DNA of 64,000 bases, taken from NCBI GenBank assembly GCA_964016885.1, contig OZ024741.1, positions 239,444,001-239,508,000 on the forward strand, read 5' to 3'. Origin of the DNA: Eledone cirrhosa. Taxonomy: Eukaryota. A program made the position numbers and the translations under genes. Below the pieces are notes generated by a model, which ran no database searches, was not told the DNA's origin, and was given only the letters and a program-made list of their open reading frames with translations. Of the stretch, positions 1,250-34,556 are shown piece by piece (the first letter of the stretch is position 1; every line of letters begins with the position of its first letter).

Positions 1250-1605
1250 TATTTAGTATGTACTAAGGCCATTCAATGTCTGACTGACTAATTCAGTAAA
1301 AATATATAATGATGTGTTATATTGAAATATAATAAACAAGAAAAATATAGTAAATACATCAAAGATGACAGCAAATATTTCCAGAAGTATGTTATATAAA
1401 TCTACAATTGAACATATATTCCTCTCCCTCACTGTTTCTTACAAAATACTTGATAGCCATGTTGGTAAAGGAGACATTCAATGAGAACTAACACAGATCT
1501 AATATGGCCACCATTACAATATTATATTTTGATGTTATAATATAGCTATATATGAGGTTATTATTTTACATGACTGGATAAATAATATAGAATATTAAAA
1601 CTTAC
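1250..1605 (-). promoter_or_regulatory. Conserved non-coding sequence at 5' end of intron 1 (gene off the left edge)
   Basis: Near-identical in all copies (e.g. cttacaaaatacttgatagccatgttggtaaag..cattcaatgagaactaacacagatctaatatggccaccattacaatatt), while sequence further into the intron diverges. Confidence 0.55.
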
Positions 1606-1990
1606 ATCATTGTGTAAAATCCTTTGTTATAAACTGTGAGTTGGTCCCAATGTTCTGTTGTTAATGGTTGTCTGTGTCACTGCTGCTATGGTGTGACAAT
1701 GGCTTCATGTTGATGGAATAGTGTTGGTAGTGAGTCAGTGGGAACCAGCAGTTCCCCTCAGTCTTCTGTGTATGTGTGATGTTTACTGAGTGTGAGTGTG
1801 TGTATGGGAGAGAGAGGTGGGGGAGGGTGATGATCACTCCAGCCTCACTCAGACTAGATGCGTTTCCCCTCACAGAGAAGAGGGAGAGAGAGAGAAGACA
1901 CAATATCAGCTCCACTAACAGTCAGCCATAATATGTCTATATAATACCAACATGTCTGATGTAGAGAGACTGACATAGAAATACTTAGAA
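1606..1990 (-). promoter_or_regulatory. Putative promoter + non-coding exon 1, copy 1 (gene off the left edge)
   Basis: ~385-bp block near-identical in six copies; ends in a - strand GTAAGT donor (GT at 1605-1604); contains TATA-like tattatatag, GA/CT tracts, TCAGT, GTAAACA and TGACTCA. Confidence 0.6.
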
Positions 1991-2423: not shown

Positions 2424-5400
2424 TTAACTAGCAACAACATCTGGTGTTGAAGGTAACTGTCTCTCTGGAGGTTTCACATATCTGTCTTGGTAATGGTCTC
2501 TCTCATTGTTACTTGACACATCAGGTGGGGCACCATAGATTCCTGAAACAAATACATCAACTCAACTTACCAAATAGTTCAGATAGACAGACAATAGGTA
2601 TTTACTGGCATTAGTTATCAATCATTTGTCTACTGCATTCATTGGTCTAATACAAAATAGCAATCATTAAAAAGGTTTTGACTGACCATCCCTAATACAC
2701 TGCAAAATCATAATCACATCAGTATGATAAATTCTTATAATGTAACAAACATGAGAACTGAAATTGCTTTACCTGACATTGCAGGTATTTCTTCATACTG
2801 TCTACTTGACCTTTCACTCCAGCATTGTCCACTACTCTTACGACTGGTCAATGTATCAGTGGGATAGTTAGCAGATGGTCTGTTGTCTCCATAAGATGTC
2901 ACCTCTATAGGTTGACTGTATTTCTGCTGTAAAATAAAGTTACAATACAATGTGTAAAAAGAAATCAAGTTTCTCTATGTACCTAAAATACAATAAATTT
3001 GTAGATATTGATGGGTATATTTATACTGTTGAATTATTGGACCTTTATATACAAAATTATCGATCCTTTTTATCTGACTATCTATCTATCATAACATAAA
3101 AAATATAACCAGTAAATGTTAACTAAAGCTGACAATCATCACAGAAATAATGTCAGCAACTTACTTGAATGGGTGCATGGTCGAGGCTCCAATTCCTCCC
3201 ACCTCTTCCATACAGCACTCCATATGGTCCACAATTTTACCAGCACTATATTACACGGTGTTGATGTGGATTGTGGCAGCCCAGAAATTTGCTACCTGGC
3301 ATATAGCAAATAAATATCTTATAGCTCACACTGGGGAAGAGAAGTGTACATGGCTTTTCTTAGACCTTTTATTGGGTTTAGTATAAGTTTATATTATGTT
3401 TGAATTTGTGGTGCAAGTGAATTTGTGAAGTAATAACAAGCAGGCAATTTGGCAGGTCTGTGTACAGAAGTACAGTTTATAGAGACATCTGAATAGTACA
3501 CAATAGGTATTCCCACAAAGGTAGCTAATATCCTATTAATATATGGTAACAATTCACATCTTAAAATGAATAGAATCATGCACAGCCACATATGAATGGA
3601 TCCTTTCATTCACTTTGTGAAGGCCTTGTACACGATTCATGTAAAAGCAAGTAACATAGAACAAGTAAATGTTGGATTATCATACGTTTGAAAATTTCAC
3701 AGGATACATTTTCATCTCCACATCATAATGATATTATTTCAACCAGATATTCTACACGACAAACCATTAATCAAACTGAAATTGTGAAATCTGAAATATT
3801 CAGATTTATCATTCTGAATTAAAGATGGAAAATATAAATAATAGACTTTACCTTTGTGGATTTCTGAAGAGATCTGTTCATTGTTGATGTCTTCCAGTCT
3901 TCAGGATAGTAATGGCTTCTAGACTGACTATATCTGTCTGATATCTCTCCTCGATTACCTGACATCACAGATACACTGTTGTTACCTTGATAGATCAACT
4001 GTCTCATCTCATTACGACATTGGTATGCCTGTTTCTCTTCTGTTGTTCTAGCTGAGTTATTTCTTACATTGTTACATCTCACAATACACAATGTTATAGA
4101 AACCACAATAGCTATAGATATTATCACAGCTGCTACTACAATGATAATCAACAATGTTGCATCTATTGTGTTATCAGTTGGTACATGGACAGCTGTGAAC
4201 ATTGGTGATGTCTTGTTACTAACAGTCAGTGTCAAAGAGACACTAGTTGTTGCTGACAGAACTGGAGTACCACTGTCTTTCACAACAAATTCCAGTTGAT
4301 ATGATCCGGCATCATTTTGGTAAACTGTACGAGAGTAAGATAAGACACCAGTGAATGAGTCCAGTTTAAATAATTGTCTCTCATTACCTGAAAGGATTTC
4401 ATACCTGAGAAAAGCATTCATGTGACTGTCTATATCAGAGGCTTTCAGAAGTGTGATGTCATTCTTACTTTGTGGATGATAGTGGACATCAAGAGTGAAA
4501 GGGTCAACACTAGGAAATGTAAAATATGGAGTATTATCATTTTTATCTAATACTTCCACTTCAACATTTACTGTGTTATTTAGAGATGGTGTTCCATTGT
4601 CTTTGACAAAAACCTCAAAGTCATAGAAATCTCTGTGTTCTCTGTCTAAAGACTGGTTTGTTGAAATAAAGCCAGAGTTGATAATCTGGAATGGTAGACG
4701 ATATTGGTGTTTATTTCTCAGATGATAACTTAATTCACCTCCCTTACCAGCATCTGGGTCTGTAGCATTGATAAAACCAATAGGGAAATTAGCTTTGTCA
4801 TTCTCATAGGTAAGGAACTTGAATGTATCTTTGGTAAAGTGTGGTTTTACATCATTCACATCTAACACTTGTATTGATAGATCTTTATCAGTTTTCAGAG
4901 AAGGTAATCCTTTATCTTGACAGGAGACAGTAAAGTGATAATGTTCCTGTGTCTCTCTGTCTACTGCTTTCTTTAGAACTATTTTATATTCTTTAGATCC
5001 CATTGACTGTAGTTTGAATGTATCATGTTTAATATTACAGCTGACCTCTCCATTGTGTCCAACATCATTGTCAGTGACCATCACATAAGCAATGAAACTA
5101 CCAACTTTGATATCTTCCAGAATGGTAGCTGTGTTGTGATTCTCTGTAGAAATATAGTTGACATCAATATTTGGAGGATTGTTGTGTTGGTTGATAACAT
5201 TTACCAGAACAGTTGCTATGGCACTGAGTGGTGGATTGCCATTATCTCTGGCTTCAATATATAATTTAAAAAATTCTTCATCAATTTGTGAAGATTTAGC
5301 TAAATATAATTTTCCTGTATTTTCATCTAAATCAAAATATTTTTTCACTTTCTCTGCAGTTTTTGTGGCAAAATAGAAAGATATTTTACCATTCCTACCA

Positions 5401-6200
5401 ATATCTAAATCATTGGCAGATAATGTCACTACTGGAATATTCTTTTTATGTTCATGTTCTATAGACACATTGTAGATACTTTGAGAAAATTCTGGTTTAT
5501 TATCATTTTCATCTTCTACAGATATTTTAACATTAAAAACACTTTGTTTTGGTGGAGTTCCTCCATCTTTAGCAATGACTTCAATATTGTAACTGTCTTT
5601 CTTTTCTCTGTCTAATTTCTTTTCTAAAATAATTTCTAATGTTGATATTCCACCAGCTTCCTTGGAAACACTTAATGCAAATTGCCCTTCATTATCTTTT
5701 AGTTCATATCTAATTAAGCTGTTCTCATATCCCACATCTTTGTCAACAGCATTGGGTATGGCCTTCTTCATACCATCTCGATCTCCTTCCCTAAACACTA
5801 GTGTAATGTCTTTCTCAGGAAACTCAGGTTGGTGGTCATTGATGTCTTCTATTATGACTTTAATTTTCAATATCTTCATAAATGTCTTGGATTTGTGAAC
5901 AGCAACTTTCACTATTTCAAAACATTCTTTCTCATAACTACACACAGACTCAGCATCCAATGTCTGAACAGTGTACAGTTTACCTGTTTTTGTCACATTA
6001 AACAATTGTTCTCCCTTTTGTTGTAGTTGACTAAATGTAATTAAATCCTTATTTTTTAAGAAGGAGCTATCTGATGTCTGTAAGTCAGTAGCAATGTCCC
6101 CTACATAAGTATAGGGATTTCTCTCTTCTTTAACATGGTATGTGATATGTTCACTTAGATAACAGTGGAAGAAAGTCAGTAAAATACACAGAGATAACAT
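2424..6200 (-). CDS. Protocadherin g1; coding exons 6200-3852, 2926/2923-2773, 2542-2424
   Basis: Signal peptide, six cadherin repeats (DxNDxxP, LDRE, AxDxG), EC1 C-x5-C, TM LLIIIVVAAVIISIAIVVSITLCIV. GT-AG introns of phase 0 then 1 join in frame to ...PDVVAS*. 5'UTR acceptor AG at 6250-6249. Confidence 0.95.
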
Positions 6201-6405
6201 CTCTGCCCCTGATGTTATCCTCAGAAATTAGAATTCCAAATATTCCACCTGAAAGAAAAAGATTTAATATATTAATGTGAAGTGAATAGAGTGTTATAAA
6301 CATGGAAACAACATTATACTGTAGCTCCTCGTGTTCTCAATGTGATGTAGAAATGGACTGTATACATATATCTATATATCTATACATATATATATACACA
6401 TACAG

Positions 6406-13628: not shown

Positions 13629-15118
13629 TATATATACTCTACCTCAAGTCAAGTTATAATCTAAACATTTTGGATGTCTCCTTAAATAGAAATAATTCTT
13701 TAAAAGGATATCTTTCAACAATTAATTCATTTCTTTACTATACAAACAGCTTGCTTATGTGTTAAAAACAAATCTATCATTAAAATAATATTAAACCAGA
13801 CATCAGAAACCACTTTTTTATAACAGCTTAATTATACTAAATTGCTATATAAACATGTTGCTTATGTGTGAAAAAACACTTTTATATAACAGGGCTTAAT
13901 TACATTAAATTAAGACAATATTTGGCTGAAATGTTTTAATTTTGCATATAAAACCAAATATATTTTGTATGAATAACTAACTAATTTTAAATCATTAATC
14001 CTAATGTAAGATATATTTACTGAAAATAAATAATTTGATAAGCATTTGTTTCCTATAATTGAAAATAGATGTAACAACATGTAAAAATCTAAAACAAATT
14101 CTAAATTTAGTCCTGTAGATGAATATTTTTTATATCAAACCTACTAGATTGATGTTATTTAGCTCTATGTAAGCTCCTATACAGCAGACATATCAAAAGC
14201 ATTTCAGTCATGCCTCTATTGTTCAAAATATTGTACCTTTAAGCATTACAAAAGAAAATATATAACAGTTCAGGGATTTGTGTATGAATAGATAATGGGC
14301 AAGAGTTAATATAGATACCAATATTTGTTACAAAGATTTAAGGCCACAGATTCCTCATTTCTTTGCTAAATTGACATTCTCTAATTAAAGAGAAAAAAAA
14401 TCAATATCATTGGTAATTATTGAAATATCATAAATATGTCTACGTTACCACAAATGTGTTAAGATACATATATATGCATAAGTAAATCATCCACTGATAT
14501 ATATAAGGCATAATAGTAACTTAAATCATTCAAATGAATAATTTACAGAAAAGAAATTAATAAGCCTAATTTTAACATGAAATTATAGAAATCGTTAGAT
14601 TTATACATAAAGATTTACACACATTCACAGATCTCATGTATACACACATACACATAATCTATATGAAAATAATATTTCATTACCAATTTTCTTATATACA
14701 GTAATGTAGGTTTTACATAAATATTGTTAATAGATATTTCAATGATATTCTAGTTCAATATTTAGTATGTACTAAGACCCTACAATGTCTGACTGAATAA
14801 TTCAGTAAAAATATATAATGATGAGTTATGTTAAAATGTAATAAACAAGATAAATATTGTATATACATCAAAGATGACTGCAAATATTTTCAGAAGTATG
14901 TTATATAAAACTACAATTGAACATATATTCCTCTTTCTCTATCACTGTTTCTTACAAAATACTTGATAGCCATGTTGGTAAAGTAGACATTCAATGAGAA
15001 CTAACACAGATCTAATATGGCCACCATTACAATATTATATTTTGATGTTAGAATATAGCTATATATTAAATTTTTATTTTACATGAATAGACAGATAATA
15101 TAGTATAATAGAACTTAC

Positions 15119-15495
15119 ATTCATTGTGTAAAATCCTTTGTTATAAACTGTGAGTTGGTCCCAATGTTCTGTTAATGGTTGTCTGTGTCACTGCTGCTAT
15201 GGTGTGACAATGGCTTCATGTTGATGGAATAGTGTTGGTCGTGAGTCAGTGGGAACCAGCAGTTCCTCTCAGTCTTCTGTGTATGTGTGATGTTTACTGA
15301 GTGTGAGTGTGTGTGAGAGAGGTGAGGGAGGGTGATGCTTACTCCAGCCTCACTCAGACTAGATGTGTTTCCCCTCACAGAGAAGAGGGAGAGAGAGAGA
15401 AGACACTATATCAGCTCCACTAACAGTCAGCCATAATATGTCTATATAATACCAACATGTCTGATGTAGAGAGACTGACATAGAAATACTTAGAA
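15119..15495 (-). promoter_or_regulatory. Putative promoter + non-coding exon 1 of g1
   Basis: Conserved block; GTAAGT donor at 15118; predicted intron 6249-15118. Confidence 0.6.
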
Positions 15496-15935: not shown

Positions 15936-18900
15936 TTAACTAGCAACAACATCTGGTGTTGAAGGTAACTGTCTCTCTGGAGGTTTCACATATCTGTCTT
16001 GGTAATGGTCTCTCTCATTGTTGCTTGACACATCAGGTGGGACACCATAGATTCCTGAAACAAGTACATCAACTCAACTTACTACATAGTTCATATAGAT
16101 GCCATATATTTTCTGACTGAAATTAGTAATCAATCTCTTGTTTATTATATTCACTAAGCTAAGATATTTAATGTTCTTAGATGTAATCATTTCCATGATA
16201 TAATGATTAAAGGTTGACTGAGTATATAAGTCAGTTCCGTTAATGGTAATACACCCAGTGTATGATGTATACAGTGGTATATCTGTGTAGAAATATATAT
16301 TCACTTATAAAATTTATAAAGATTGATAGAAATAATATCAGATTATTTCATAATTGTGAAAATTAGAAATTATGAAAATCAAATAATGAAATTAATAACA
16401 GATAAGGATAAATAAAATTGTTTTACCTGACATTGCTGGTATTTCTTCATACTGTCTACTTGACCTTTCACTCCAGCACTGTCCACTGCTCTTACGACTG
16501 GTCAATGTATCAGTGGGATAGTTAGAAGATGGCCTGTTGTCTCCATAAGATGTCACTTCTATAGGTTGACTATATTTCTGCAGGACAATATAATTACAAT
16601 AAAGAACATAAAGATATCATTTAGGACATTATACCTGAAATATACCCAATATCTAGATATTGATGTGTACATGTATACTATTGAAATATTGGACCATTAT
16701 GTATAAAAGAATCAGTTGTATAGATCCTGTTTATTTGATCATTTGTCATTATACCAAATAAAATGTATCCAGTACAGGTTACAAATAATCATTTCATAGC
16801 TTACTCTGGATATAAACGTAGATGTAGCTTTTTAGGTCTATGTTAATGCATATGATATAAGTGGATGAATAAGCATGTTTTCAGTGCAAAGTTGAATTCA
16901 TAGCAGGCAGGAAATTTGGCATGTTTATCAACAGAAGTAGTTTCCAAAACAATCTGAAATTGTGTAAAATAGATGATACAACAAAGTTAAAATCCTATTG
17001 ACAAAGTTAATCTTGCTATAAATTACTAGATTCTGGCTCCACAGTGTATGACTGCATCATTGATTCAAGGCACTCATTAAAATCCATTTCCAGAAAATAC
17101 CTTACCATTTGGATTATTGTGTTTCAAAAGTAAATCATCATAACCTTATTTTTTTCAACCAGATATATTCTATACTAAAACCAATCAGAAAGTAAACGGA
17201 CTACCTACATTGGTAATTTTAAACAGTAACTGCAGAGTTGAAAATATTCAGCTGTTTCATTTTTAATTAAATGTTATTCAACAGATAGAAAATATTAGAT
17301 AGAGCTTACCTTTGTGGATTTCTGAAGAGATCTGTTCATTGTTGATATCTTCCAGTCTTCAGGATAGTAATGACTTCTAGACTGACTATATCTGTCTGAT
17401 ATCTCTCCTCGATTACCTGACATCACAGATACACTGTTGTTACCTTGATAGATCAACTGTCTCATCTCATTACGACATTGGTATGCCTGTTTCTCTTCTG
17501 TTGTTCTAGCTGAGTTATTTCTTACATTGTTACATCTCACAATACACAATGTTATAGAAACCACAATAGCTATAGATACTATCACAGCTGCTACTACAAT
17601 GATAATCAATAATGTTGCATCTATTGTGTTATCAGTTGGTACATGGACAGCTGTGAACATTGGTGATGTCTTGTTACTAACAGTCAGTGTTAAAGAGACA
17701 CTAGTTGCTGCTGACAGAACTGGAGTACCACTGTCTTTCACAACAAACTCCAGTTGATATGATCCAGCATCATTTTGGTAAACTGTGCGAGAGTAAGATA
17801 AGACACCAGTGAATGAGTCCAGTTTAAATAACTGTTTCTCATTACCTGAAAGGATTTCATACCTGAGAAAAGCATTCATGTGACTGTCTATATCAGAGGC
17901 TTTCAGAAGTGTGATGTCATTCTTACTTTGTGGATGATAGTGTATATCAAGAGAGAAAGGATCAACACTAGGAAATGTAAAATATGGAGCATTATCATTT
18001 TTATCTAATACTTCCACTTCAACATTCACTGTGTTATTTAGAGATGGTGTTCCATTGTCTTTGACTAAAACCTCAAAGTCATAGAAATCTCTGTGTTCTC
18101 TGTCTAAAGACTGGTTTGTTGAAATAAAGCCAGAGTTGATAATCTGGAATGGTAGACGATATTGGTGTTTATTTCTCAGATAATAACTTAATTCACCTCC
18201 CTTACCAACATCTGGGTCTGTAGCATTGATAAAACCAATAGGGAAATTAGCTTTGTCATTCTCATAGGTAAGGAACTTGAATGTATCTTTGGTAAAGTGT
18301 GGTTTTACATCATTCACATCTAAGACTTGTATTGAGAGATCTTTATCAGTTTTCAGAGAAGGTAATCCTTTATCTTGACAAGAGACAGTAAAGTGATAAT
18401 GTTCCCGTGTCTCTCTGTCTACTGCTTTCTTTAGAACTATTTTATATTCCTTAGATCCCATTGACTGTAGTTTGAATGTATCATGTTTGATATTACAGCT
18501 GACTTCTCCATTGTGTCCAACATCATTGTCAGTGACCATCACATAAGCAATGAAACTACCAACTTTGATATCTTCCAGAATGGTAGCTGTGTTATGATTC
18601 TCTGTAGAAATGTAGTTGACATCAATATTTGGAGGATTGTTGTGTTGGTTGATAACATTTACCAGAACAGTTGCTATGGCACTGAGTGGTGGACTGCCAT
18701 TATCTCTGGCTTCAATATATAATTTTAAAAATTCTTCTTTATCAATTTCTGAAGATTTAGCTAAATATAACTTTCCTGTATTTTCATCTAAATTAAAGTA
18801 TCTTTTCATTTTCTCTGCAGTTTTCGTAGCAAAATAGAAAGATATTTTACCATTCCTGCCAATATCTAAATCATTGGCAGATAATGTCACAACTGGAATA

Positions 18901-19661
18901 TTCTTTTTATGCTTATGTTCTATAGAGACATTGTAGATACTTTGAGAAAACTGTGGTTTATTATCATTTTCATCTTCTACAGATATTTTAACATTCAAAA
19001 TACTTTGTTTTGGTGGAGTTCCTCCATCTTTAGCAATAATTTCAATATTGTAACTGTCTTTCTTTTCTCTGTCTAATTTATCTTCTAAAATAATTTCTAA
19101 CGTTGATATTCCACCTGCTTGTTTGGAAACACTTAATGAAAATTGTCCTTCATTATCAAGAAGCTCATATTTAATTAGACTGTTCTCATATCCCACATCT
19201 TTATCAACCGCATTGGGTATTGATCTCTTGGTGTTTTTACTATCAGTTTCAGAAAACTGAATATTGACTTGTTCTGTTGGAAACTCAGGTTGGTGGTCAT
19301 TGATGTCTTCTATTATGACTTTAATTTTCAATATCTTCATAAATGTCTTGGATTTGTGAACAGCAACTTTCACTATTTCAAAACATTCTTTCTCATAACT
19401 ACACACAGACTCAGCATCCAATGTCTGAACAGTGTACAGTTTACCTGTTTTTGTCACATTAAACAATTGTTCTCCCTTTTGTTGTAGTTGACTAAATGTA
19501 ATTAAATCCTTATTCTTTAAGAAGGAGCTATCTGATGTCTGTAAGTCAGTAGCAATGTCCCCTACATAAGTATAGGGATTACTCTCTTCTTTAACATGGT
19601 ATGTGATATGTTCACTTAGATAACAGTGGAAGAAAGTCAGCAAAATACACAGAAATAACAT
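15936..19661 (-). CDS. Protocadherin g2; coding exons 19661-17310, 16577-16427, 16054-15936
   Basis: Same architecture and intron phases as g1; 5'UTR acceptor AG at 19711-19710. Confidence 0.95.
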
Positions 19662-19892
19662 CTCTGCTCTTGATGTTATCCTCAGAAATTAGAATTCCAA
19701 ATATTCCAACTGAAAGAAAAAGATTTAATATATTAATGTGAAGTGAATAGAGTGTTATAAACATGGAAACAACATTATACCGTAGCTCCTCAAATTGTGT
19801 GTGGTCTGTATAATACATCACAAAAAAGAGCAAAGCTCATATTCTTAATATGACATAGAAATAGACCACATTATATATATATATATATACAC

Positions 19893-20040
19893 AAATCATC
19901 GTTTAAGATCTATTTCCCTTCCAGCATGAGTTAGATTAGCTGCCCCATAATGAGACAAGCCAGGTTGGATGATTGTCTTGCTCATACAGAATTAAATTTG
20001 GCTAGATTTCTACAGCTGGATACCCTTCCTAACGCCAATC
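19893..20040 (-). mobile_element. Degraded SINE-like element next to a short (TA)n
   Basis: gatttctacagctggatacccttcctaacgccaa is the reverse complement of the family core. Confidence 0.65.
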
Positions 20041-20504
20041 ACACAGTAACAATGGGATAATATACAATTTTATTTTGCATAGTTTTACATTGATTTTACA
20101 AAATTTAGGTATTAACATTTTGAATTATGGAAACAAATCATTCACCATTTTATTGTCTGTCATTTTTTATATTTGCAGTAGATATGGAGTATAAAAAGGT
20201 GCAGTGCACTCAAAGTTTATGGAAGCCATGGAGTGGGAAGACGCAGGAAGAATTAGGATGAGGTGATAAAAGCTGACGTTGCTCAATTGCACCTATCAAA
20301 AGTGATGACACAGGATCGAGATCTCTAGCGTTTGCAGTCATATAGAAGACCCACGTTCCCATGAGCCCCGACTGAAACATACATCTAGTATGCACCACCT
20401 CCACTCTTTCTATTTACCTCCCACGTCCTAACATTCCACCCCTCAAACACACCCAAATATCCAACTCCCTAATCCCCACACAACTCTCCCACCAAATACA
20501 CCAG

Positions 20505-20825
20505 ACCACACTGTAAAGTTATTATGATGGCAACATGACAGACAGCACCCAGCCCATCCGAAACTGTAAAGTTGTCATGTAGGTGTCAGGACAAAAAGCA
20601 CGAAGTCCACACTGTAAAGTGGTCATGTAGGCATCACAACAAAAAGCAACCAGTACTCACTGTAAATGAGATTGGAGTTAAGAAGGGAAACTAGCTGTAG
20701 AAATCAAGCCAAAATCAGTTCTGTGTGAGCAAGAAATGGTCACCTGACCTGGCATTTCTCACAAGACAATTCATCTAACCTATGCTAGCATGGAAAAATA
20801 GACGTTAAATGGTAATGATGATGGA
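20505..20825 (+). mobile_element. SINE-like element with internal cacactgtaaagt repeats
   Basis: Similar to 36612-36878; tail catggaaaaatagacgttaaatggtaatgatgatg. Confidence 0.7.
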
Positions 20826-20988
20826 GTATATTTCCAGATAAGCAGTCTATAATAAACACACTAACATGGGTAAACCTAAGATATATTACATTATTCGACA
20901 AATAAATATAAGATAGCTGTATTGTGAGCCTGAGCATAGCTACATCACATCGATGATAGATTCAACGTCTATTATACATATTTTGATA

Positions 20989-23900
20989 TAGGAATTTGAA
21001 ATTGGCTGTATCCAATAAATGGGATTTCAATGGAACATACTGAGGCAGAAAATTATTGATTTCTAACTTAGACACAAGGCTAGCAAATTCGGAGGAGGCC
21101 AAAGTTGATTAAATTAACCTAATACTTAACTGGCATTTTATTTTATTAACCCAGGAAGGATGAACGGTAAAGTTAACCTCAGAAATGATTCATTTGGAAA
21201 TAAATAGGAATAGTTTGAATTATCTCCCCTCTATATATACTACTAAGTTACATGTTTAACAAAACAAAGCTTACACTATAATATAGCTTGACAATAGATA
21301 TATATTGACTTATTACTGTTAATATTAAATTTATATTTTAAACTCAAAAACATTTTATGATAATATTTTTGTTCAATAAATCTCTTCCCAAAAATAAAAC
21401 ATACTATTTTGTAATCAACTCTACCTGATGTCAAGTTATAATCTTAACATCTTGGATATCTCCAATCTTTAGCTAGAACTAATTTTGCATATAAAACCAA
21501 ATATATTTTTAAAATAAATATCAAATTTTACATTATGACAATGCAAAATATATTTGCAGCAATAAAAATAATTGGACAAGATGCATTTGTTTCCTATACT
21601 TGAAATGTAACATTAGGTGAAAAAAATTTAAAACAAATTCTTATAAATTTGTTTGCAATAACTTATTCAAAAAGAGGAATAAAATAATTGGCACAAGATT
21701 TCTAAATCATATTGTTATTTAGTCTTCTAGATGAATATTTTTTATATCAAACTTACAAGATAGATGTTATTTAACACTATCTAGTAGATATGTCATCAAA
21801 AGCATTCCAGTCATGACCACAGCCCCAATTTATTGGTCATCTAAGTGATACAACAAAAATATGACAGATCAGATGCGTGTATGAATAGATAACAGGCAAC
21901 AATATCAATATTCTTAAATATTTAAGGCCAAAAATTCTGCATTTCTTTGATAAATTAACCTATAATAATTTTTTTAAAACATGGTTGGCAATAGTTGAAG
22001 TATCAAATATTTTGTATATGTTAACACAAATGTATCAAGAAACATTTATGAATAAGCAAATCATCCACTGATATATATAAAGCATATTTGTAACTTAAAT
22101 CATTCAAATGAATAATTTACAAAAAAGAAAGAAATAAGCCTAATTTTAACATGAAATTATAGGAATCGGTAGATTTATACATACTGAAGATTTACAAACA
22201 TTCACAGATTTCATGTATACACATACACAATCTATATTTAGTATGTACTAAGGCCATTCAATGTCTGACTGACTAATTCAGTAAAAATATATAATGATGT
22301 GTTATATTGAAATATAATAAACAAGAAAAATATAGTAAATACATCAAAGATGACAGCAAATATTTCCAGAAGTATGTTATATAAATCTACAATTGAACAT
22401 ATATTCCTCTCCCTCACTGTTTCTTACAAAATACTTGATAGCCATGTTGGTAAAGAAGACATTCAATGAGAACTAACACAGATCTAATATGGCCACCATT
22501 ACAATATTATATTTTGATATTATAATATAGCTATATATGAGGTTATTATTTTACATGACTGGATAAATAATATAGAATATTAAAACTTACATCATTGTGT
22601 AAAATCCTTTGTTATAAACTGTGAGTTGGTCCCAATGTTCTGTTAATGGTTGTCTGTGTCACTGCTGCTATGGTGTGACAATGGCTTCATGTTGATGGAA
22701 TAGTGTTGGTAGTGAGTCAGTGGGAACCAGCAGTTCCCCTCAGTCTTCTGTGTATGTGTGATGTTTACTGAGTGTGAGTGTGTGTATGGGAGAGAGAGGT
22801 GGGGGAGGGTGATGATCACTCCAGCCTCACTCAGACTAGATGCGTTTCCCCTCACAGAGAAGAGGGAGAGAGAGAGAAGACACAATATCAGCTCCACTAA
22901 CAGTCAGCCATAATATGTCTATATAATACCAACATGTCTGATGTAGAGAGACTGACATAGAAATACTTAGAAAATAGAGGTTATATTAACAAAATGTGGT
23001 TGATGTTGTTAATGGTATTTAATATAAAATGTATTTAAAATATAAACAATAACAGTTAGTATGTGGTTGACCTAATTTTAAACTAACTCTCCCACTCAGG
23101 GTATATTTAATAAAATCTACAGATGTTATGTTACCTCGCATCATTATCAGTTTTGTCCATCTTTACATGTAAAATATATTTCCTCAAACATAAAATTTAC
23201 AATATATTGTACTTATTATTTATCTATACCATAATTCAATTTATATTTTCAAGTATAAATTGTAAAGTCTATTATTATTGTAGAACATTCCCTATTATTA
23301 TATTTACCTTAATATTATCAACAAACTAATATACTTCTGTAGTTTTAATTATTGTGTGGATCTTGAAGGTGATATTTCTGTTGTGTTAATTTCTCAGTCT
23401 GACTTAACTAGCAACAACATCTGGTGTTGAAGGTAACTGTCTCTCTGGAGGTTTCACATATCTGTCTTGGTAATGGTCTCTCTCATTGTTACTTGACACA
23501 TCAGGTGGGGCACCATAGATTCCTGAAACAAATACATCAACTCAACTTACCAAATAGTTCAGATAGACAGACAATAGGTATTTACTGGCATTAGTTATCA
23601 ATCATTTGTCTACTGCATTCATTGGTCTAATACAAAATAGCAACCATTAAAAAGGTTTTGACTGACCATCCCTAATACACTGCAAAATCATAATCACATC
23701 AGTATGATAAATTCTTATAATGTAACAAACATGAGAACTGAAATTGCTTTACCTGACATTGCAGGTATTTCTTCATACTGTCTACTTGACCTTTCACTCC
23801 AGCATTGTCCACTACTCTTACGACTGGTCAATGTATCAGTGGGATAGTTAGCAGATGGTCTGTTGTCTCCATAAGATGTCACCTCTATAGGTTGACTGTA

Positions 23901-26160
23901 TTTCTGCTGTAAAATAAAGTTACAATACAATGTGTAAAAAGAAATCAAGTTTGTCTATGTACCTAAAATACAATAAATTTGTAGATATTGATGGGTATAT
24001 TTATACTGTTGAATTATTGGACCTTTATATACAAAATTATCGATCCTTTTTATCTGACTACTATCTATCATAACATAAAAAATATAACCAGTAAATGTTA
24101 ACTAAAGCTGACAATCATCACAGAAATAATGTCAGCAACTTCTTACTTGAATGGGTGCATGGTCGAGGCTCCAATTCCTCCCATCTCTTCCATACAGCAC
24201 TCCATATGGTCCACAATTTTACCAGCACTATATTACACGGTGTTGATGTGGATTGTGGCAGCCCAGAAATTTGCTACCTGGCATATAGCAAATAAATATC
24301 TTATAGCTCACACTGGGGAAGAGAAGTGTACATGGCTTTTCTTAGACCTTTTATTGGGTTTAGTATAAGTTTATATTATGTTTGAATTTGTGGTGCAAGT
24401 GAATTTGTGAAGTAATAACAAGCAGGCAATTTGGCAGGTCTGTGTACAGAAGTACAGTTTATAGAGACATCTGAATAGTACACAATAGGTATTCCCACAA
24501 AGGTAGCTAATATCCTATTAATATATGGTAACAATTCACCCTTAAAATGAATAGAATCATGCACAGCCACATATGAATGGATCCTTTCATTCACTTTGTG
24601 AAGGCTTTGTACACGATTCATGTAAAAGCAAGTAACATAGAACAAGTAAATGTTGGATTATCATACGTTTGAAAATTTCACAGGATACATTTTCATCTCC
24701 ACATCATAATGATATTATTTCAACCAGATATTCTACACTACAAACCATTATTCAAACAGAAATTGTGAAATCTGAAATATTCAGATTTATCATTCTGAAT
24801 TAAAGATGGAAAATATAAATAATAGACTTTACCTTTGTGGATTTCTGAAGAGATCTGTTCATTGTTGATGTCTTCCAGTCTTCAGGATAGTAATGGCTTC
24901 TAGACTGACTATATCTGTCTGATATCTCTCCTCGATTACCTGACATCACAGCTACACTGTTGTTACCTTGATAGATCAACTGTCTCATCTCATTACGACA
25001 TTGGTATGCCTGTTTCTCTTCTGTTGTTCTAGCTGAGTTATTTCTTACATTGTTACATCTCACAATACACAATGTTATAGAAACCACAATAGCTATAGAT
25101 ATTATCACAGCTGCTACTACAATGATAATCAACAATGTTGCATCTATTGTGTTATCAGTTGGTACATGGACAGCTGTGAACATTGGTGATGTCTTGTTAC
25201 TAACAGTCAGTGTTAAAGAGACACTAGTTGTTGCTGACAGAACTGGAGTACCACTGTCTTTCACAACAAACTCCAGTTGATATGATCCGGCATCATTTTG
25301 GTAAACTGTACGAGAGTAAGATAAGACACCAGTGAATGAGTCCAGTTTAAATAATTGTCTCTCATTACCTGAAAGGATTTCATACCTGAGAAAAGCATTC
25401 ATGTGACTGTCTATATCAGAGGCTTTCAGAAGTGTGATGTCATTCTTACTTTGTGGATGATAGTGGACATCAAGAGAGAAAGGGTCAACACTAGGAAATG
25501 TAAAATATGGAGCATTATCATTTTTATCTAATACTTCCACTTCAACATTTACTGTGTTATTTAGAGATGGTGTTCCATTGTCTTTGACAAAAACCTCAAA
25601 GTCATAGAAATCTCTGTGTTCTCTGTCTAAAGACTGGTTTGTTGAAATAAAGCCAGAGTTGATAATCTGGAATGGTAGACGATATTGGTATTTATTTCTC
25701 AGATGATAACTTAATTCACCTCCCTTACCAGCATCTGGGTCTGTAGCATTGATAAAACCAATAGGGAAATTAGCTTTGTCATTCTCATAAGTAAGGAACT
25801 TGAATGTATCTTTGGTAAAGTGTGGTTTTACATCATTCACATCTAACACTTGTATTGAGAGATCTTTATCAGTTTTGAGAGGAGGTAATCCTTTATCTTG
25901 ACAGGAGACAGTAAAGTGATAATGTTCCTGTGTCTCTCTGTCTACTGCTTTCTTTAGAACTATTTTATATTCTTTAGATCCCATTGATTGTAGTTTGAAT
26001 GTATCATGTTTAATATTACAGCTGACTTCTCCATTGTGTCCAACATCATTGTCAGTGACCATCACATAAGCAATGAAACTACCAACTTTGATATCTTCCA
26101 GAATGGTAGCTGTGTTGTGATTCTCTGTAGAAATATAGTTGACATCAATATTTGGAGGAT
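20989..26160. repeat. Segmental duplicate of 1-~5180
   Basis: Near base-for-base identity, including introns and intergenic DNA, ending at the EC3/EC4 boundary. Confidence 0.9.
22591..22972 (-). promoter_or_regulatory. Putative promoter + non-coding exon 1 of g2
   Basis: Conserved block; GTAAGT donor at 22590; predicted intron 19710-22590. Confidence 0.6.
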
Positions 26161-27187
26161 TGTTCTGTTCACTGATAACATTTATCTGAATTATTGCAAG
26201 GGAACTGAGAGGAGAACTGCCATCATCTTTGGCTTCCACATATAATTTAAATTTCTGTTTTTTTCCAATTTCTAATGATTTTTTCAAGTATAATTTTCCA
26301 GTAATTTCATTCAAACGAAAATTATTTCTTGACTTTACATCTGTTTTCTGACTGAAATAGAAATATATTTTACCATTCCTACCAATATCTAAATCATTGG
26401 CAGATAATGTCACTATTGGAATATTTTTTTTATGGTCATGTTCCATAGAAACATTATAAATAGTCTGGGTAAATTGTGGTGTGTTATCATTTTCATCTTC
26501 TACAGATATTTTAACATTTAAAATACTTTGTTTTGGTGCAGTTCCTCCATCTTTTGCAATGACCTCAATATTGTAGCTGTCTTTATTTTCTCTGTCTAAT
26601 TTCTTTTCTAAAATGATACCTAATGTTGATATTTCATCAGCTAATTTTGATTGAGATAAGGAAAAATGTTCATCATTATTTTTTAATTCATATTTAATTA
26701 AACTGTTCTTAAAACCCACATCCTTATCAATGGCACTGGGTATTGTTTTCTTCATACCATCTCGATCTCCTTCACGAAACACTAAACTGATTTCTTTCTC
26801 AGGAAACTCAGGTTGGTGGTCATTGATGTCTTCTATTATGACTTTAATTTTTAAAATCTTCATAAATGTCTTGGATTTGTGAACAGCAACTTTAATTATT
26901 TCAAAACATTCTTTCTCATAACTACACACAGACTCAGCATCCAATGTCTGAACAGTGTACAGTTTACCTGTTTTTGTCACATTGAACAATTGTTCTCCCT
27001 TTTGTTGTAGTTGACTAAATGTAATTAAATCCTTATTCTTTAAGAAGGAGCTATCTGATGTCTGTAAGTCAGTAGCAATGTCCCCTACATAAGTATAGGG
27101 ATTTCTCTCTTCTTTAACATGGTATGTGATATCTTCACTCAGATAACAGTGGAAGAAAGTCAGTGAAATACACAGAAATAACAACAT
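23404..27187 (-). CDS. Protocadherin g3; coding exons 27187-24833, 23906/23903-23753, 23522-23404
   Basis: Same architecture; most divergent EC3; 5'UTR acceptor AG at 27244-27243. Confidence 0.95.
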
Positions 27188-28899
27188 CTCTGGTCTTGGT
27201 GCTAATACAGTGTCCTGGGAAAGATGACTATGAATATTTAATCTGAAACAGAAACAATTTCAATATATTAATGGTGTCTGATATGTTAAGTCTTGTCTTC
27301 CATTTTTTTCCTCATGAAAACAAGTGTGCAAAATGATATATAAATGAAATCCGATTAAGTTTCTTGATGTGAATTTGTGTACTAAAACGGTTAATGCTCT
27401 ATTTTGGCAGAGACATGATGACAATCAAAACACCTGCACTGTTTATCTTTCACTTTAGTTTTATTATTTATCTGGTAATTAATCAATCATTCAGTTGATT
27501 AATATTAAAATATAGGCATAATAAGAAGCTTTGAGTTATCTCTCTTGAATATGAAGTAATTTCAGATATTACACCATTTTCAATAAAACAAAGAAACATC
27601 AGATTCTAAATACTATAAGATCCTGAAAAGGTAGTATACAAATCAACATCATAAAGATATTAACCAAAAATAGTAATAATGTAATATAGTTATGAGTTAT
27701 CTTTTGTGTATTCTGTAAAACTGAACCAGATTACAGATTGAAATTTCCCAATTATTATAATCTATATTAAACAGTATTGACAAGATATCTATTTACTAAC
27801 TGCTATTGATAAATTCAGATATATATACTAAACTGAATAACATTTGATATTGTTAATATTACCACTTCAACAATTCTTCTCTCAGAAATAACATATTTTG
27901 TTAAAACCTGAAGTTCAAATAAAGTTATAATTTTAACATCTTGGATGTCACCTTAAAAACAAATTATTTAGACTGCATTCACTACATGATTCTCCTATTT
28001 GTTATATCAGCAGTTTAAGCCTTTTCCATTTTGTTTATTTATGTAAAAAATTTATGAAATTAGAATTAAAATATGAAACAAGAGATCATGTTTTTTCTTT
28101 TATTACAGTACTTGAGTACAATAAATTGTGACAGTATTAATAATTAACATTTTACAACAGATAGAATATTTGTCACAATTAGTACATGAATATTGTTCAT
28201 GCAGAATTAAGGCTACAGATTCATTATATCTCATCTTCCTAAATGTTACTAAAATTTATAACAGGAAATTATAGAAATATCATGGATATATTTGGCCTGT
28301 TATCTAAAATGTATTAATGATTGTATATTCAAAACACTAAAGATATAACATATTTGTATATATAATTTCAATCAAATCAATAAGACATTATAATATGAAG
28401 CTAGTCATCAGTAGACATATACACAGAAATAAAGACGTTTTCTTGTATGTATAAAATTATAGAATTGTGTAGAAACAAAATTTATTTATTTGAGTGTCTC
28501 ATATTATTAACATTAAACCTACATTATTGTATATATGTCAATGGTATTCTTGTTCAATACTTAGTCTATAATAAGACCATAAAATATATAACAGAATAAT
28601 ACAGTAAAAATATATAACGTAATGTTAAAATATAATTAAGATAAATATTGTAAATACATCAAAGATGACAGCAAATATTTCCAGAAGTATGTTATATAAA
28701 ACTACAATTGAACATATATTCCTCTCCCACTGTTTCTTACAAAATACTTGATAGCCATGTTGGTAAAGAAGACATTCAATGAGAACTAACACAGATCTAA
28801 TATGGCCACCATTACAATATTATATTTTGATGTTATAATATAGCTATATATGAAGTTATTATTTTACATGACTAAATAAATAAGCATGATAAAACTTAC

Positions 28900-29279
28900 A
28901 TTCATTGTGTAAAATCCTTTGTTATAAACTGTGAGTTGGTCCCAATGTTCTGTTGTTAATGGTTGTCTGTGTCACTGCTGCTATGGTGTGACAATGGCTT
29001 CATGTTGATGGAATAGTGTTGGTAGTGAGTCAGTGGGAACCAGCAGTTCCTCTCAGTCTTCTGTGTATGTGTGATGTTTACTGAGTGTGAGTGTGTGAGA
29101 GATGGGTGGGGGAGGGTGATGCTTACTCCAGCCTCACTCAGACTAGATGTGTTTCCCCTCACAGAGAAGAGGGAGAGAGAGAGAAGACACAATATCAGCT
29201 CCACTAACAGTCAGCCATAATATGTCTATATAATACCAACATGTCTGATGTAGAGAGACTGACATAGAAATAATTAGAA
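28900..29279 (-). promoter_or_regulatory. Putative promoter + non-coding exon 1 of g3
   Basis: Conserved block; GTAAGT donor at 28899; predicted intron 27243-28899. Confidence 0.6.
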
Positions 29280-29685: not shown

Positions 29686-32600
29686 TTAACTAGCAACAAC
29701 ATCTGGTGTTGAAGGTAACTGTCTCTCTGGAGGTTTCACATATCTGTCTTGGTAATGGTCTCTCTCATTGTTGCTTGACACATCAGGTGGGACACCATAG
29801 ATACCTGAAATAAGTACATCAACTCAACTTACCACATAGATCACAGACAGACAATAGATATTTACTGACATTAGTTATCAATCTTTTGTCAACTGCATAC
29901 ACTGGACTAAGATATAAAATGATCATTAAAGAAGTATTTTATCAATCCTTAGAAATCATCATCAGATGAGGCTAATAATTGTTTCTACTTTAGGCACAAG
30001 GCCAGCAATTACCCAGTGCATTACTGGATGAGGCTAATAATGTCATACGTATCTGTTTGATATATACATCATCAGTGTAATGTATGTTTTTTCATGCTGT
30101 CATTAGTGGGATGAGTTCAGACAGAGATCTACAGGCAGATGCCCTTCTTGATAGTGAACCCAACACTTTTTGTAAGTAAGGTACAATTCTTTGCACATCT
30201 AAGCACTGTTCAACTAGAGCTTTCTATACATGGAACATAAACAAATATCCCCAAAAGCAATGAGTCCATGAAATGAGAAGAAACAAACACAAACACATAT
30301 AAACACATAAAAAACATATATAAAGGCTTCTTTATGTTTCTGCCTACCAAATTCATTCATAAGGCATTGTTGATCTGAGGCTATAGTAGAAGACATTTGT
30401 ATAATGTGCAGTGGGATAGAATCTAACACCAAATGGTTGCCAAAAAGTTAATAGCTAATTTTCATAATATTGATAAATAATCGTTTCTTAATCACTAGCA
30501 TTGGACATTATTTAATGAATGAATGCATGAGTGAAATTATTTTACCTGACATTGCTGGTATTTCTTCATACTGTCTACTTGACCTTTCACTCCAGCACTG
30601 TCCGCTACTCTTATGACTGGTTAATGTATCAGTGGGATAGTTAGAAGATGGTCTGTTGTCTCCATAAGATGTCACCTCTATAGGTTGACTGTATTTCTGC
30701 TGTAAAATATTGTAACAAGTTAGAGAGCAAGGATTGAATTTTTGAATGTAGACTTAAAATATCTTCAATTTCTAGCTAAAAATGGGTGTTAAAATATTGG
30801 ACCAATATAAACAAAAACATCAATTCTATAGATCCTCATCTGACCACTTTCATTCATACCATAGAAAATGTATCTAGTACAATTTATTCTGAGGATTTAG
30901 ATGTTGCAAAAAGTGATTTTAAAGCTTAACATATTTCGGAAAGATATCTAGTAATACAAGCTATGTCAATCAAAGGGTTGAAAGGATTCATTGTTGTGTC
31001 AACAACATAATCTTACATGTAATGGTGCAACAATAAAACGTATCCAGTACACCCAAATAAAGTGGTTGGTGATAAAAAAGGAAACCAGATGTTGCAACAA
31101 TATCAAAATTGGAATATATACTAGCAAGATATGGTTCCTGGGTCATCTGAGGGAACAGTAGTTCAGATTAAATACTGACTTGGTCTGTAATAACCCATTT
31201 AACCTATCTTATCAAGGGAAAATAGGCATTAAATGATAATTGTTTCTACTTTTGGCACAAGGCCAGCAATTATCCCAGTGTATTACGACCCCGTAAGGAT
31301 GAAAGGCAATGTTAACCTCGGCGGGATTTGAACTAAGTTCCTAAAGGGAAGTAACTCTTTCCTGCTAAGCATGGTGTCCGACCCTCTACCGATACCGCCA
31401 ATCCACCGCCCTTTGCTGTAAATGATAATGGTGATCCCACAGAAGAAAAAAATAAACAAAGCACTTTAGGCCTTCCTTTATTGGTGATAGTCAAAATTTA
31501 TATTGTGAGGGAGTTGTTGGTACAAAATTGGTGTCATAGTAGTCGGGGAAATTCACTGGTTACTATGCAGAAATACATTTTACAAAGGTATCAGAATTGT
31601 AAAACATAGTGTGGGTCCACAATGGTAGCTAAAATCCAATTGAGAAGTGTTAAGTTATTCTAGCTAATAATTAAGTGATTCTGGTTCTACAATATATGAA
31701 TACAACATTGATCCTCATGTCAGTTGCCTTGTTGGGAATTCATTGACCAACAAGTTACAAAGAGCAACTCATAGATTACCTAACAATTGAAAAGAGTACA
31801 AAATACATTTATATTTCTAAATTGTGATACATTATCAACCAGATATTCTAAAAAAAAAAATATTCACGATTAAAAAGTGGACATAAATTGGTAATTTAAG
31901 AAGTAAACATGAAATTTATGATATTCAATTATATTGTTCTTAATTTACAGATAGTGAAAAAACAAATCGTTTACCTTTGTGGATTTTTGAAGAGATCTGC
32001 TCATTGTTGATGTCTTCCAGTCTTCAGGATAGTAATGACTTCTAGATTGACTATATCTGTCTGATATCTCTCCTCGATTACCTGACATCACAGATACACT
32101 GTTGTTACCTTGATAGATCAACTGTCTCATCTCATTACGACATTGGTATGCCTGTTTCTCTTCTGTTGTTCTAGCTGAGTTATTTCTCACATTGTTACAT
32201 CTCACAATACACAATGTTATAGAAACCACAATAGCTATAGATACTATCACAGCTGCTACTACAATGATAATCAACAATGTTGCATCTATTGTGTTATCAG
32301 TAGGTACATGAACAGCTGTGAACATTGGTGATGTCTTGTTACTAACAGTCAGTGTTAAAGAGACACTAGTTGTTGCTGACAGAACTGGAGTACCACTGTC
32401 TTTCACAACAAACTCCAGTTGATATGATCCAGCATCATTTTGGTAAACTGTGCGAGAGTAAGATAAGACACCAGTGAATGAGTCCAGTTTAAATAATTGT
32501 CTCTCATTACCTGAAAGGATTTCATACCTGAGAAAAGCATTCATGTGACTGTCTATATCAGAGGCTTTCAGAAGTGTGATGTCATTCTTACTTTGTGGAT

Positions 32601-34323: not shown

Positions 34324-34556
34324 CTCTGCCCTTGATGTTATCCTCAGAAATTAGAATTCCAAATACTCCACCTGAAAGAAAAAGATTTAATATATTAATG
34401 TGAAGTGAATAGAGTGTTATAAACATGGAAACAACATTATACCGTAGCTCCTCAAATTGTGTGTGGTGTAACACATCAATAATACTCATGTTCTCAATGT
34501 GATGTAGAAATGGATTGTATACATATATCTTTACATACATATATATATATATATAT

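Follow-up and report, generated by a model that had tools for sequence, protein, structure and literature searches.

Short-tract gene conversion probably (we would put the chance at about 0.7) homogenises the octopod protocadherin genes analysed here from EC4 to the tail and also shuffles their EC2-EC3 domains, while selection would keep the variants of these two domains for a predicted homophilic EC2:EC3 surface between cells. Such selection is considered likely because EC2 and EC3 are predicted to face each other in an antiparallel EC1-EC4 homophilic dimer. We infer DNA-level gene conversion as the copying route, together with the antiparallel dimer, an isoform-specific homophilic binding and a role in neuronal identity. 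In such a scheme, constant EC1 and EC4 would provide shared docking, constant EC5-6, TM and tail would allow interchangeable cis pairing and a single signal, and the patches on EC2 (A-B, D-E side) and EC3 (C-D, F-G side) would choose which copy binds which; conversion would generate new patch combinations, of which mismatched ones would be purged.

The window, that is, the whole stretch of 64,000 nucleotides that was analysed, contains six intact protocadherin reading frames (g1 to g6), all on the (-) strand, as are all the features given below. They are members of an octopod array of 44 frames lying on a single strand over about 410 kb as complete, head-to-tail, multi-exon genes, with a second array about 250 kb away. 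The reading frame is open in all 44, and one of them, in which no start motif was matched, was left out of the gene analyses. The six window genes all fall within a core subfamily of 32 genes, the array also holding a second subfamily and singletons. In g1 (p26), the large coding exon (3852..6248, ATG at 6200) encodes the signal peptide, EC1-EC6, TM and the start of the tail, and the join 3852/2926 is present in the RNA-like runs X4 and X12; tail exon 2, an own and homogenised copy (2773..2926), is supported by sequence comparison and RNA-like splice joins, and tail exon 3 runs through the stop codon (2424..2542; join 2772/2541 in RNA-like runs). Every array gene has its own 5' exon and its own near-identical tail exons 2 and 3, which are not shared between genes, so that variable-to-constant splicing of the vertebrate type (alpha, gamma) does not describe the array. 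The other large exons are those of g2 (p25; 17310..19709, EC2-EC3 18633-19289, tail exons 16427-16580 and 15936-16054, 5' exon donor 22591), g3 (p24; 24833..27242, EC2-EC3 26156-26812, tail exons 23753-23906 and 23404-23522), g4 (p23; 31975..34371, EC2-EC3 33298-33951, tail exons 30546-30699 and 29686-29804, 5' exon donor 49884), g5 (p22; 52083..54491, EC2-EC3 53406-54062, tail exons 51200-51353 and 50706-50824, 5' exon donor 57578) and g6 (p21; 59744..62147, EC2-EC3 61067-61723, tail exons 58871-59024 and 58379-58497, 5' exon just past the window end). A promoter-like region with its 5' exon also occurs in one near-identical copy per array gene, compatible with either stochastic choice or co-expression. 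Array comparison placed it at 14849..15405 for g1 (homogenised, with the non-coding 5' exon, donor 15119, and the start of the first intron) and at 1340..1900 for the neighbour p27, which has its coding exon immediately left of the window; that of g3, with its 5' non-coding exon, is at 28640..29189, the donor 28900 being joined to a family coding exon in runs X4, X12 and X19, not X1. Spliced protocadherin-family transcripts are thus present in the RNA-like runs, in contigs not assignable to single genes.

The protocadherin identity of these genes is given by six EC repeats, a TM, a cytoplasmic tail and an invariant EC1 cysteine pair, as well as by one PF08266 (Cadherin_2) and five PF00028 (Cadherin) stretches in the two of six window genes scanned with Pfam. 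The closest proteins are Octopus and Argonauta protocadherins, with 81-88% identity. A model of EC1-4 of an array protein (pLDDT 86.7) resembles solved protocadherin EC1-4 structures, and its top Foldseek matches are protocadherins throughout. Both by sequence and by fold, the best matches are the delta-2 protocadherins (Pcdh8, 10, 17, 18, 19; about 30% identity), which, unlike the octopod array, are single genes without an array or conversion-driven diversity. Since these dimerise via antiparallel EC1-4, according to the accessible part of PMC5115871, the surface is suggested to be ancestral, and the available text of PMC5001838 likewise makes an EC1-4 dimer surface probably ancestral to protocadherins. 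The convergent recognition code proposed by the sequence-only reading is a candidate with indirect support from the specificity positions and residue pairings described below; convergence concerns the expansion and the pattern of diversification alone, the dimer surface itself being probably inherited. The linkers EC1-2, EC2-3 and EC4-5 are of the DxND type, and the canonical DxNDN is absent from the EC3-EC4 linker in 134/134 octopod rows. This linker is a family variant of octopods, compatible with protocadherin status, and because of it the octopod rod may differ from the vertebrate one.

Within the six-gene alignment, variation rises at the codon after DINDH and drops back at NNPP, just as the sequence-only reading had described, the diverse segment of g1 being placed by the alignment and per-domain dS at 5175..5828 (5172-5821 in that reading). 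Mean dS over the 15 gene pairs amounted to 0.452 in EC2 and 0.384 in EC3, compared with 0.065 in EC1, 0.070 in EC4, 0.033 in EC5, 0.059 in EC6, 0.025 in TM and 0.041 in the tail part, and the uniform dS which that reading had named as contrary evidence is therefore excluded (0.38-0.45 versus 0.03-0.07 elsewhere). The pair g1-g4 (1/15) is an exception, with an EC2-3 dS of 0.038, no higher than in the remaining domains. Amino-acid variation affects 97/218 codons in EC2-3 versus 27/548 elsewhere (p=4e-37), and silent variation is found in 39/121 versus 40/512 of the amino-acid-invariant codons (Fisher p=4e-11). Variation inside EC2-3 is patchy, EC2 strands F-G and EC3 strands A-B being almost constant. 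Among 43 array genes, 42 distinct EC2-3 proteins were counted, p25 and p27 carrying an identical one. The earlier claim that EC1, EC4-EC6, TM and tail are all homogenised holds for EC4 onwards; EC1 is constant only inside subfamilies, its dS reaching 1.07-2.18 between the 32-gene subfamily and the other subfamily or singletons. Between the core and the second subfamily (192 pairs), EC4-6 dS is 0.04-0.06 although the silent sites of EC1-3 are saturated. The introns of different units, also said to be diverged, are near-random (gapped identity 0.58-0.63 versus 0.56-0.58 for shuffles; 150/496 core pairs sampled). Some long segments between array genes are 95-98% identical. In the second, long-separated array EC2 and EC3 are again the domains with the highest dS.

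Three lineages, namely the source genome, Octopus spp. and Argonauta, were compared at the protein level. Lineage-diagnostic columns, determined on 43+37+26 sequences (6/69 foreign units were dropped, five lying outside the array and one partial), numbered 19 in EC4-6 and none in EC1-3. The EC4-6 tree splits into three lineage clades and EC2-3 types cross lineages; the monophyly of the source-genome genes is rejected for EC2-3 (AU p=2e-109) and present for EC4-6 with a support of 99.7 (15 versus 26 chosen rows). Polymorphic columns common to the lineages were 26/111 in EC2 and 22/107 in EC3, compared with 1/108 in EC1 and 0/110 in EC4, three gappy foreign models having been dropped from the 77 core rows. 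Within the core subfamily one-to-one isoform orthology is absent. EC4-6 of the 44-gene array has therefore undergone concerted evolution, its homogenisation being lineage-specific as is that of the tail, and the grouping by lineage, not shared by EC2-3, supports the earlier proposals of homogenisation by conversion and of whole-gene copies that keep a virtual constant region, each with its own near-identical exons.

EC2-3 is itself exchanged, at a scale of about 60-120 nt: r2 declines from 0.26 to 0.06 by 120 nt, a PHI-like test is significant (p=0.001), and 110/496 pairs show an excess of identical runs, with a median run of 61 nt. The same test was non-significant in EC1 (p=0.48) and EC4-tail (p=0.66), two regions that offer few sites and show a high incompatibility whatever the distance. 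Thus, the confinement of diversity to EC2-EC3 was correctly anticipated, and the restriction of conversion to the remaining parts was not, since tracts of some 60 nt move within EC2-3 as well. Three modules can be followed in g1. M1 (EC2 strand A, A-B loop and start of B; mature residues 113-130; 5763..5816), which carries a mapped specificity site, is hypervariable and swaps freely, independently of its flanks and, in both arrays, of every EC3 segment. M2 (EC2 B to D-E loop; residues 131-170; 5643..5762) covaries with M3 (EC3 C-D loop to F-G loop; residues 258-310; 5223..5381), which follows g1's own flanks. Natural pairs differ by module: g2 resembles g1 in EC3 and has another M1, g3 has the M1 type of g1 with other M2 and M3, g4 is 98% identical to g1 in EC2-3, and p04 and p05 have a common M2/M3 type and distinct M1. 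EC2 C-E and the EC3 C-D loop vary together in all three lineages (r 0.38/0.56/0.63), and this coupling, block-like and not focal in the 44-gene array, persists when flanks and array position are controlled for (r 0.26, p=0.004). Nevertheless, descent explains part of it, since M3 follows the flanks and silent sites show the coupling too (r 0.21, p=0.008; 0.13, p=0.10 once near-duplicates are removed). Tested for charge complementarity, the 44-gene array gives a symmetric outcome (of 247 pairs, z<-3 in 5 and z>3 in 6). The best long-range r2 among 29 non-redundant genes, 0.64, is below the permutation 95% mark of 0.77, and with 32 genes it is borderline (0.82 versus a 99% mark of 0.82).

Focal pairings were found in the second array, in which 35 long frames were detected (two without a start motif were dropped and one gene lies outside the array) and 30 of the 32 genes were counted, two edge genes being left out. 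F309 is present in 12/12 genes with N173 and in 1/18 of the others, in both subfamilies, and the sites lying between 173 and 309 show an r2 of 0.3 or less; in 13 proteins from other species, all 4 with N173 have I/F309 and all 9 with K173 have L309. In turn, D347 occurs with E89 in 0/16 cases versus 11/14 otherwise. Outside these counts, five genes (p37-p41) do combine E89 and D347 and are counter-cases. The 173/309 (EC2-EC3) and 89/347 (EC1-EC4) pairings are independent of each other, and both lie inside the contact zones listed for vertebrate dimers in the accessible part of PMC5115871. The family-wise p of the top r2 was 0.026, and there is a weak correlation of the EC1/EC4 types with the flanks upstream (r 0.19-0.20). 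This covariation supports the expectation for an antiparallel EC1:EC4/EC2:EC3 dimer, the same evidence being weak in the 44-gene array.

As regards selection, the domain-wide positive selection for which the sequence-only reading proposed a dN/dS check is absent (0.30-0.36), and no tested domain or sub-region reaches a dN/dS of 1. Six vertebrate EC2:EC3 specificity positions, taken from the available text of PMC5106212 and mapped by hand onto the octopod alignment, average 1.56 bits versus 0.59 (p=0.0005; Octopus 0.002; Argonauta 0.06). The named vertebrate contact pairs 119-306, 133-263 and 134-266 show no covariation in the source genome, the element-level interface test was weak (p 0.088/0.032/0.51), and the comparison of the faces ABDE and CFG held for EC2 and failed for EC3. 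Much of the variation falls in loops that are not among the listed contact zones (EC2 C-D, EC3 E-F).

These loops, together with a dN/dS below 1 everywhere, the symmetric charge test and a coupling shared with silent sites and flanks, would suit a neutral island, in which conversion operates but EC2-3 once became too dissimilar by drift to be exchanged, all isoforms have the same binding and the array serves mainly dosage. This is nevertheless unlikely: despite continuing exchange inside EC2-3, three lineages have kept the same variants, near-constant stretches lie within the two domains, these are again the highest in dS in the long-separated array, and the focal pairings of that array recur in other species. 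Selection could also diversify EC2-3 for binding molecules other than self, for instance a microbe, a different isoform or some further surface protein. A combination of short-tract shuffling with old shared variants is typical of immune-type families, the free and hypervariable M1 of both arrays fits such a ligand, and many protocadherins are also expressed in octopus non-neuronal cells (PMC9712504, as far as accessible). However, a homodimer, unlike an outside ligand, leads one to expect pairings between distant domains of one gene, and the enrichment of variation at mapped vertebrate specificity sites also argues against this rather improbable alternative.

Copying via reverse-transcribed mRNA would account for a homogenisation that follows exons: over the 50 nt next to a splice donor, identity goes down from about 0.95 to 0.34, exon 2 (150 nt) has a fourfold-site p-distance of 0.096 between unalignable introns, the end of exon 1 correlates with exon 2 in pairs whose introns are unrelated (r 0.33, p=0.014), and the window holds frames that look reverse-transcriptase-like by their motifs. 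However, the correlation between exons 2 and 3 is negative (r -0.42), the first intron is still about 80-85% alike across genes over about 200 nt, and splice-joined forms occur, among the matches listed, in the RNA-like runs only, not in X1 or X5, all of which makes this route very improbable. Finally, recent whole-gene duplication with fast EC2-3 change, a nucleotide constraint such as RNA editing, or an assembly artefact might be read from the long near-identical segments and from p25 and p27, whose identical EC2-3 means that single copies could be haplotype duplicates. Such explanations are scarcely credible, since silent sites of EC2-3 have diverged along with replacement sites, introns are near-random, counterparts of the EC2-3 heads exist in other species and EC4-6 bears lineage-specific residues, and the independently assembled Octopus and Argonauta proteins repeat the domain pattern.

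Sub-arrays of clustered protocadherins in coleoids are likewise made up of complete multi-exon genes copied head to tail along one chromosome, and their homogenisation by gene conversion has been suggested in general terms (accessible parts of PMC9068888, PMC6339937, PMC9795677), the word "conversion" being absent from the available text of PMC9795677. No by-domain account was found in this literature, "EC2" being absent from the available text of PMC9068888 and PMC9795677; supplements of PMC9068888 may hold one. Compared with these sources, domain-bounded concerted evolution, lineage-crossing EC2-3 variants, short-tract shuffling and the residue pairings are new. Moreover, the "recent burst" at 8-14 Ma, dated from whole-gene distances (PMC9795677, in part), may in part reflect conversion having reset the clock, the clusters of that work being possibly other than the 44-gene array. 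The accessible coleoid cluster papers make no functional claim, and no binding assay of a cephalopod protocadherin was found in the available literature.

Vertebrate clusters, which expanded independently (PMC9068888, PMC4978886, accessible parts), likewise encode the six EC domains, the TM and the beginning of the tail by a single exon, especially in mouse Pcdh-alpha and zebrafish Pcdh2ab, and their dS is highest in EC2/EC3 and lowest in EC5/EC6 (available text of PMC4978886, PMC5001838, PMC5106212 and PMC8901172). Identity in EC1/EC2/EC3/EC5, at 96/69/59/98% for mouse alpha in these sources, is similar in the octopod core array (97/77/78/98%), and known specificity positions overlap octopod variable sites. 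Unlike them, the octopod array has unshared tails, each probably kept constant by conversion, a non-canonical EC3-EC4 calcium linker and no one-to-one isoform orthology within its core. Vertebrate clusters are known for strictly homophilic, isoform-specific binding, promiscuous EC5-6 cis dimers and stochastic promoter choice through CSE/CTCF. Their EC2/EC3 is apparently not converted, judging from the accessible part of PMC4978886, whereas that of the octopod array is actively reshuffled.

The role of cephalopod protocadherins in neuronal identity has been in question since the octopus genome. Conversion instead of shared exons represents a second way to hold a constant region, and whole-gene trees and dates make octopod arrays seem younger than their EC1-3 heads. 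In addition, the domain-level evidence leads to specific tests, such as natural isoform pairs differing in one module and two-residue switches. A more far-reaching version, to which we give somewhat less than an even chance, is a self-renewing homophilic barcode, in which conversion would write a single constant region and a single promoter onto dozens of entire genes and deal ancient EC2/EC3 patches in ever new combinations, and selection would keep only self-complementary EC1:EC4 and EC2:EC3 pairs. If true, this would amount to a recombination-driven, modular code of neuronal identity built on an ancestral antiparallel dimer, with 173/309 and 89/347 as switch pairs, a free EC2 A-B cassette and, unlike the vertebrate rod, a calcium-poor EC3-EC4 hinge.

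Six protocadherin genes with intact frames (g1 to g6) lie on the minus strand of the window (C2:239444001-239508000), within a 3.0-Gb genome; their closest relatives are Octopus and Argonauta proteins with 81–88% identity. Including 200 kb on each side raises the number of open frames to 44, each about 800 codons long and all on one strand, and gene models were built for 43 of them. Each modelled gene consists of a non-coding 5' exon, a single large exon encoding the signal peptide, the cadherin repeats EC1-6, the transmembrane segment and the beginning of the cytoplasmic tail, and two private tail exons. Predicted splice sites are joined in RNA-like runs for family members, whose contigs assign neither gene nor tissue. 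The window genes belong to a 32-gene core subfamily; outside this core, the first array holds a six-gene subfamily and five singletons. A promoter-like region with the 5' exon occurs once per gene, 87–99% identical across the core (window 1340-1900, 14849-15405, 22325-22882, 28640-29189, 49614-50178 and 57315-57867); it holds a near-invariant 15-codon upstream frame and lies merely some hundreds of bases from the last exon of the preceding gene. In most genes exon 2 has a tandem NAGNAG acceptor (window 2923-2926 in g1), and at this site one Q is present or absent among Octopus and Argonauta proteins. Two RNA-like runs contain a partial join, 26947/28899, from the 5' exon to a point inside EC1, which may derive from a different family member. 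Amid very long AT/AC microsatellites, the first intron of g1 and that of g4 each hold a reverse-transcriptase-like frame (8444-11209 and 34956-36581, both plus strand, about 70% alike in DNA), presumably LINE-like from their motifs.

As the sequence-only reading had claimed, the diversity of the window genes is limited to EC2-EC3, silent sites included: mean dS reaches 0.45 for EC2 and 0.38 for EC3 but stays at 0.03–0.07 in every other part, and among codons with an invariant amino acid, silent variation affects 39 of 121 inside EC2-3 and 40 of 512 elsewhere (p=4e-11). The segment boundaries it proposed match those found, and the introns of different units, described there as diverged, show near-random similarity; g1 and g4 form the sole non-diverged pair in EC2-3 among 15. 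In the core (496 pairs), dS is also strongly non-uniform along the gene (0.075, 0.48, 0.36, 0.077, 0.046 and 0.050 from EC1 to EC6), with dN/dS of 0.30–0.36 in EC2-3 and 0.14–0.24 in the other parts. The homogenisation claimed for the remainder holds array-wide for EC4-tail, but for EC1 solely within a subfamily, since between the core and the six-gene subfamily or singletons EC1-3 is near saturation (dS 0.7–2.2) and EC4-6 differs by just 0.03–0.16.

This homogenisation is lineage-specific. At the protein level, once 37 units from Octopus and 26 from Argonauta are added, 19 lineage-diagnostic columns (two of them an indel) fall in EC4-6 and none in EC1-3; exon 2 has Argonauta-specific residues too. 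The EC4-6 tree forms three lineage clades, while in EC1-3 trees singletons group with their counterparts from other species. With 41 chosen protein rows, a single clade for this genome's genes is rejected in EC2-3 (AU p=2e-109), whereas in EC4-6 these genes already form one, with support of 99.7. Neither recent duplication nor nucleotide-level constraint fits this lineage-grouped EC4-6 and cross-lineage EC2-3, and gene conversion is almost certainly at work in the array. Moreover, long duplicated segments (window -3689..6199 with 17299..27183, 98%; 12747-19802 with 47512-54579, 97%) have both their ends inside coding exons, joining the head (EC1-3) of one gene to the tail of a neighbour. The constant part has therefore probably undergone unequal crossing-over too.

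EC2-3, taken as the part spared from conversion, is itself exchanged over short ranges: linkage has decayed to background at a distance of about 120 nt, a PHI-like test gives p=0.001, and excess identical runs (median 61 nt) occur in 110 of 496 pairs, this run test being one that clustered variable sites may inflate. Old variants are also common to the lineages, the same variants occurring in all three in 26 of 111 columns of EC2 and 22 of 107 of EC3, against 1 of 108 in EC1 and 0 of 110 in EC4. Of three modules, numbered by mature residues of g1, M1 (113-130, EC2 A-B) shows no association with flanks, array position or EC3, M3 (258-310, EC3 C-G) tracks its own gene's flanks, and variation in M2 (131-170, EC2 B to D-E) goes along with that in M3. 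The gene lying left of the window and g2 are identical in EC2-3, so the pair may reflect very recent copying or haplotype duplication.

In the vertebrate antiparallel dimer, EC2 A-B/B/D-E/E faces EC3 C-D/F/F-G/G, and EC1 F-G faces EC4 strand A/B (PMC5115871), specificity coming mostly from EC2/EC3 and affinity from EC1/EC4 (PMC5001838; bioRxiv 10.1101/493106). Strand limits were set here by motifs, in agreement with an EC1-4 model (pLDDT 86.7, pTM 0.58) whose best fold matches are protocadherins without exception. Six specificity positions from section 10 of PMC5106212, mapped by hand onto residues 119, 133, 134, 263, 266 and 306, have a mean entropy of 1.56 against 0.59 bits in the first array (p=0.0005; 0.003 against polar sites), the p values being 0.002 and 0.009 in Octopus and 0.06 and 0.16 in Argonauta. 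The M2-M3 coupling is seen in all three lineages, and it holds when flanks, position and spacer are controlled (r 0.20, p=0.017). Several results from the first array speak against a recognition surface: the coupling is block-like, extends to silent sites and lacks charge asymmetry; none of the individual long-range pairs reaches significance once redundant genes are set aside; the named vertebrate contact pairs do not covary; and an element-level interface test is weak. From the first array alone, descent and co-adaptation are inseparable.

A second array of 32 genes (C2:239.91-240.23 Mb, L041-L072) repeats the domain pattern (dS 0.23, 0.64, 0.56, 0.07, 0.05 and 0.03 from EC1 to EC6), with two EC1 F-G types. 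When 8158 long-range site pairs are ranked within the 22-gene subfamily of this array, the first 41 all join EC1 82-97 with EC4 339-347, or EC2 173 with EC3 308-309. The family-wise p for the highest r2 in the array is no better than 0.026. N173 accompanies F309 in 12/12 genes against 1/18 others, in both subfamilies, with r2 <=0.3 at intervening sites and no link to flanks; E89 accompanies K/N347 (16/16), and R or T89 accompanies D347 (11/11), these EC1/EC4 types weakly tracking upstream flanks. The two pairings are mutually independent, as expected of the nested contacts in an antiparallel dimer. Among 13 proteins of other species, N173 occurs with I/F309 (4/4) and K173 with L309 (9/9), and like-charged 89/347 pairs are absent. 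Against this, five genes of the first array combine E89 with D347, though the window six are K89/D347. One D-E loop type and one C-D loop type are combined in all 32 second-array genes, and the same two types co-occur in the first array.

The array belongs with the clustered protocadherins of coleoids, for which gene conversion has been suggested in general terms (PMC9068888; PMC6339937); PMC10084454 gives a general description, and our literature search found no domain-level analysis or binding assay for coleoid arrays, part of which supplements may contain. On present evidence it would work like the vertebrate clusters without being one: the coleoid expansion was independent (PMC9068888), each octopod gene has its own tail exons whereas vertebrates share constant exons, and octopod EC2-3 is actively shuffled whereas vertebrate EC2/EC3 is apparently unconverted, as far as PMC4978886 goes. 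A further difference is the EC3-EC4 linker, devoid of the DxNDN calcium motif in 134/134 octopod protocadherin rows (window 5175-5192 in g1); the EC3 E-F loop is variable at the usual DRE site and neighbouring linkers are canonical, suggesting a calcium-poor hinge where the diverse part meets the constant one.

The observation of the sequence-only reading is confirmed, and its interpretation, once refined, is partly supported. Octopus neurons express about 21 protocadherins apiece (PMC9712504), which is compatible with a combinatorial label and falls short of proof. The overall model, to which we assign a probability of roughly 0.7, is that ectopic conversion and unequal crossing-over would hold one promoter and one EC4-tail on all genes, and one EC1 per subfamily, while new combinations of EC2-3 patches would be dealt out and selection would retain distinct, self-compatible surfaces, the isoforms being predicted to bind homophilically and to label neurons.
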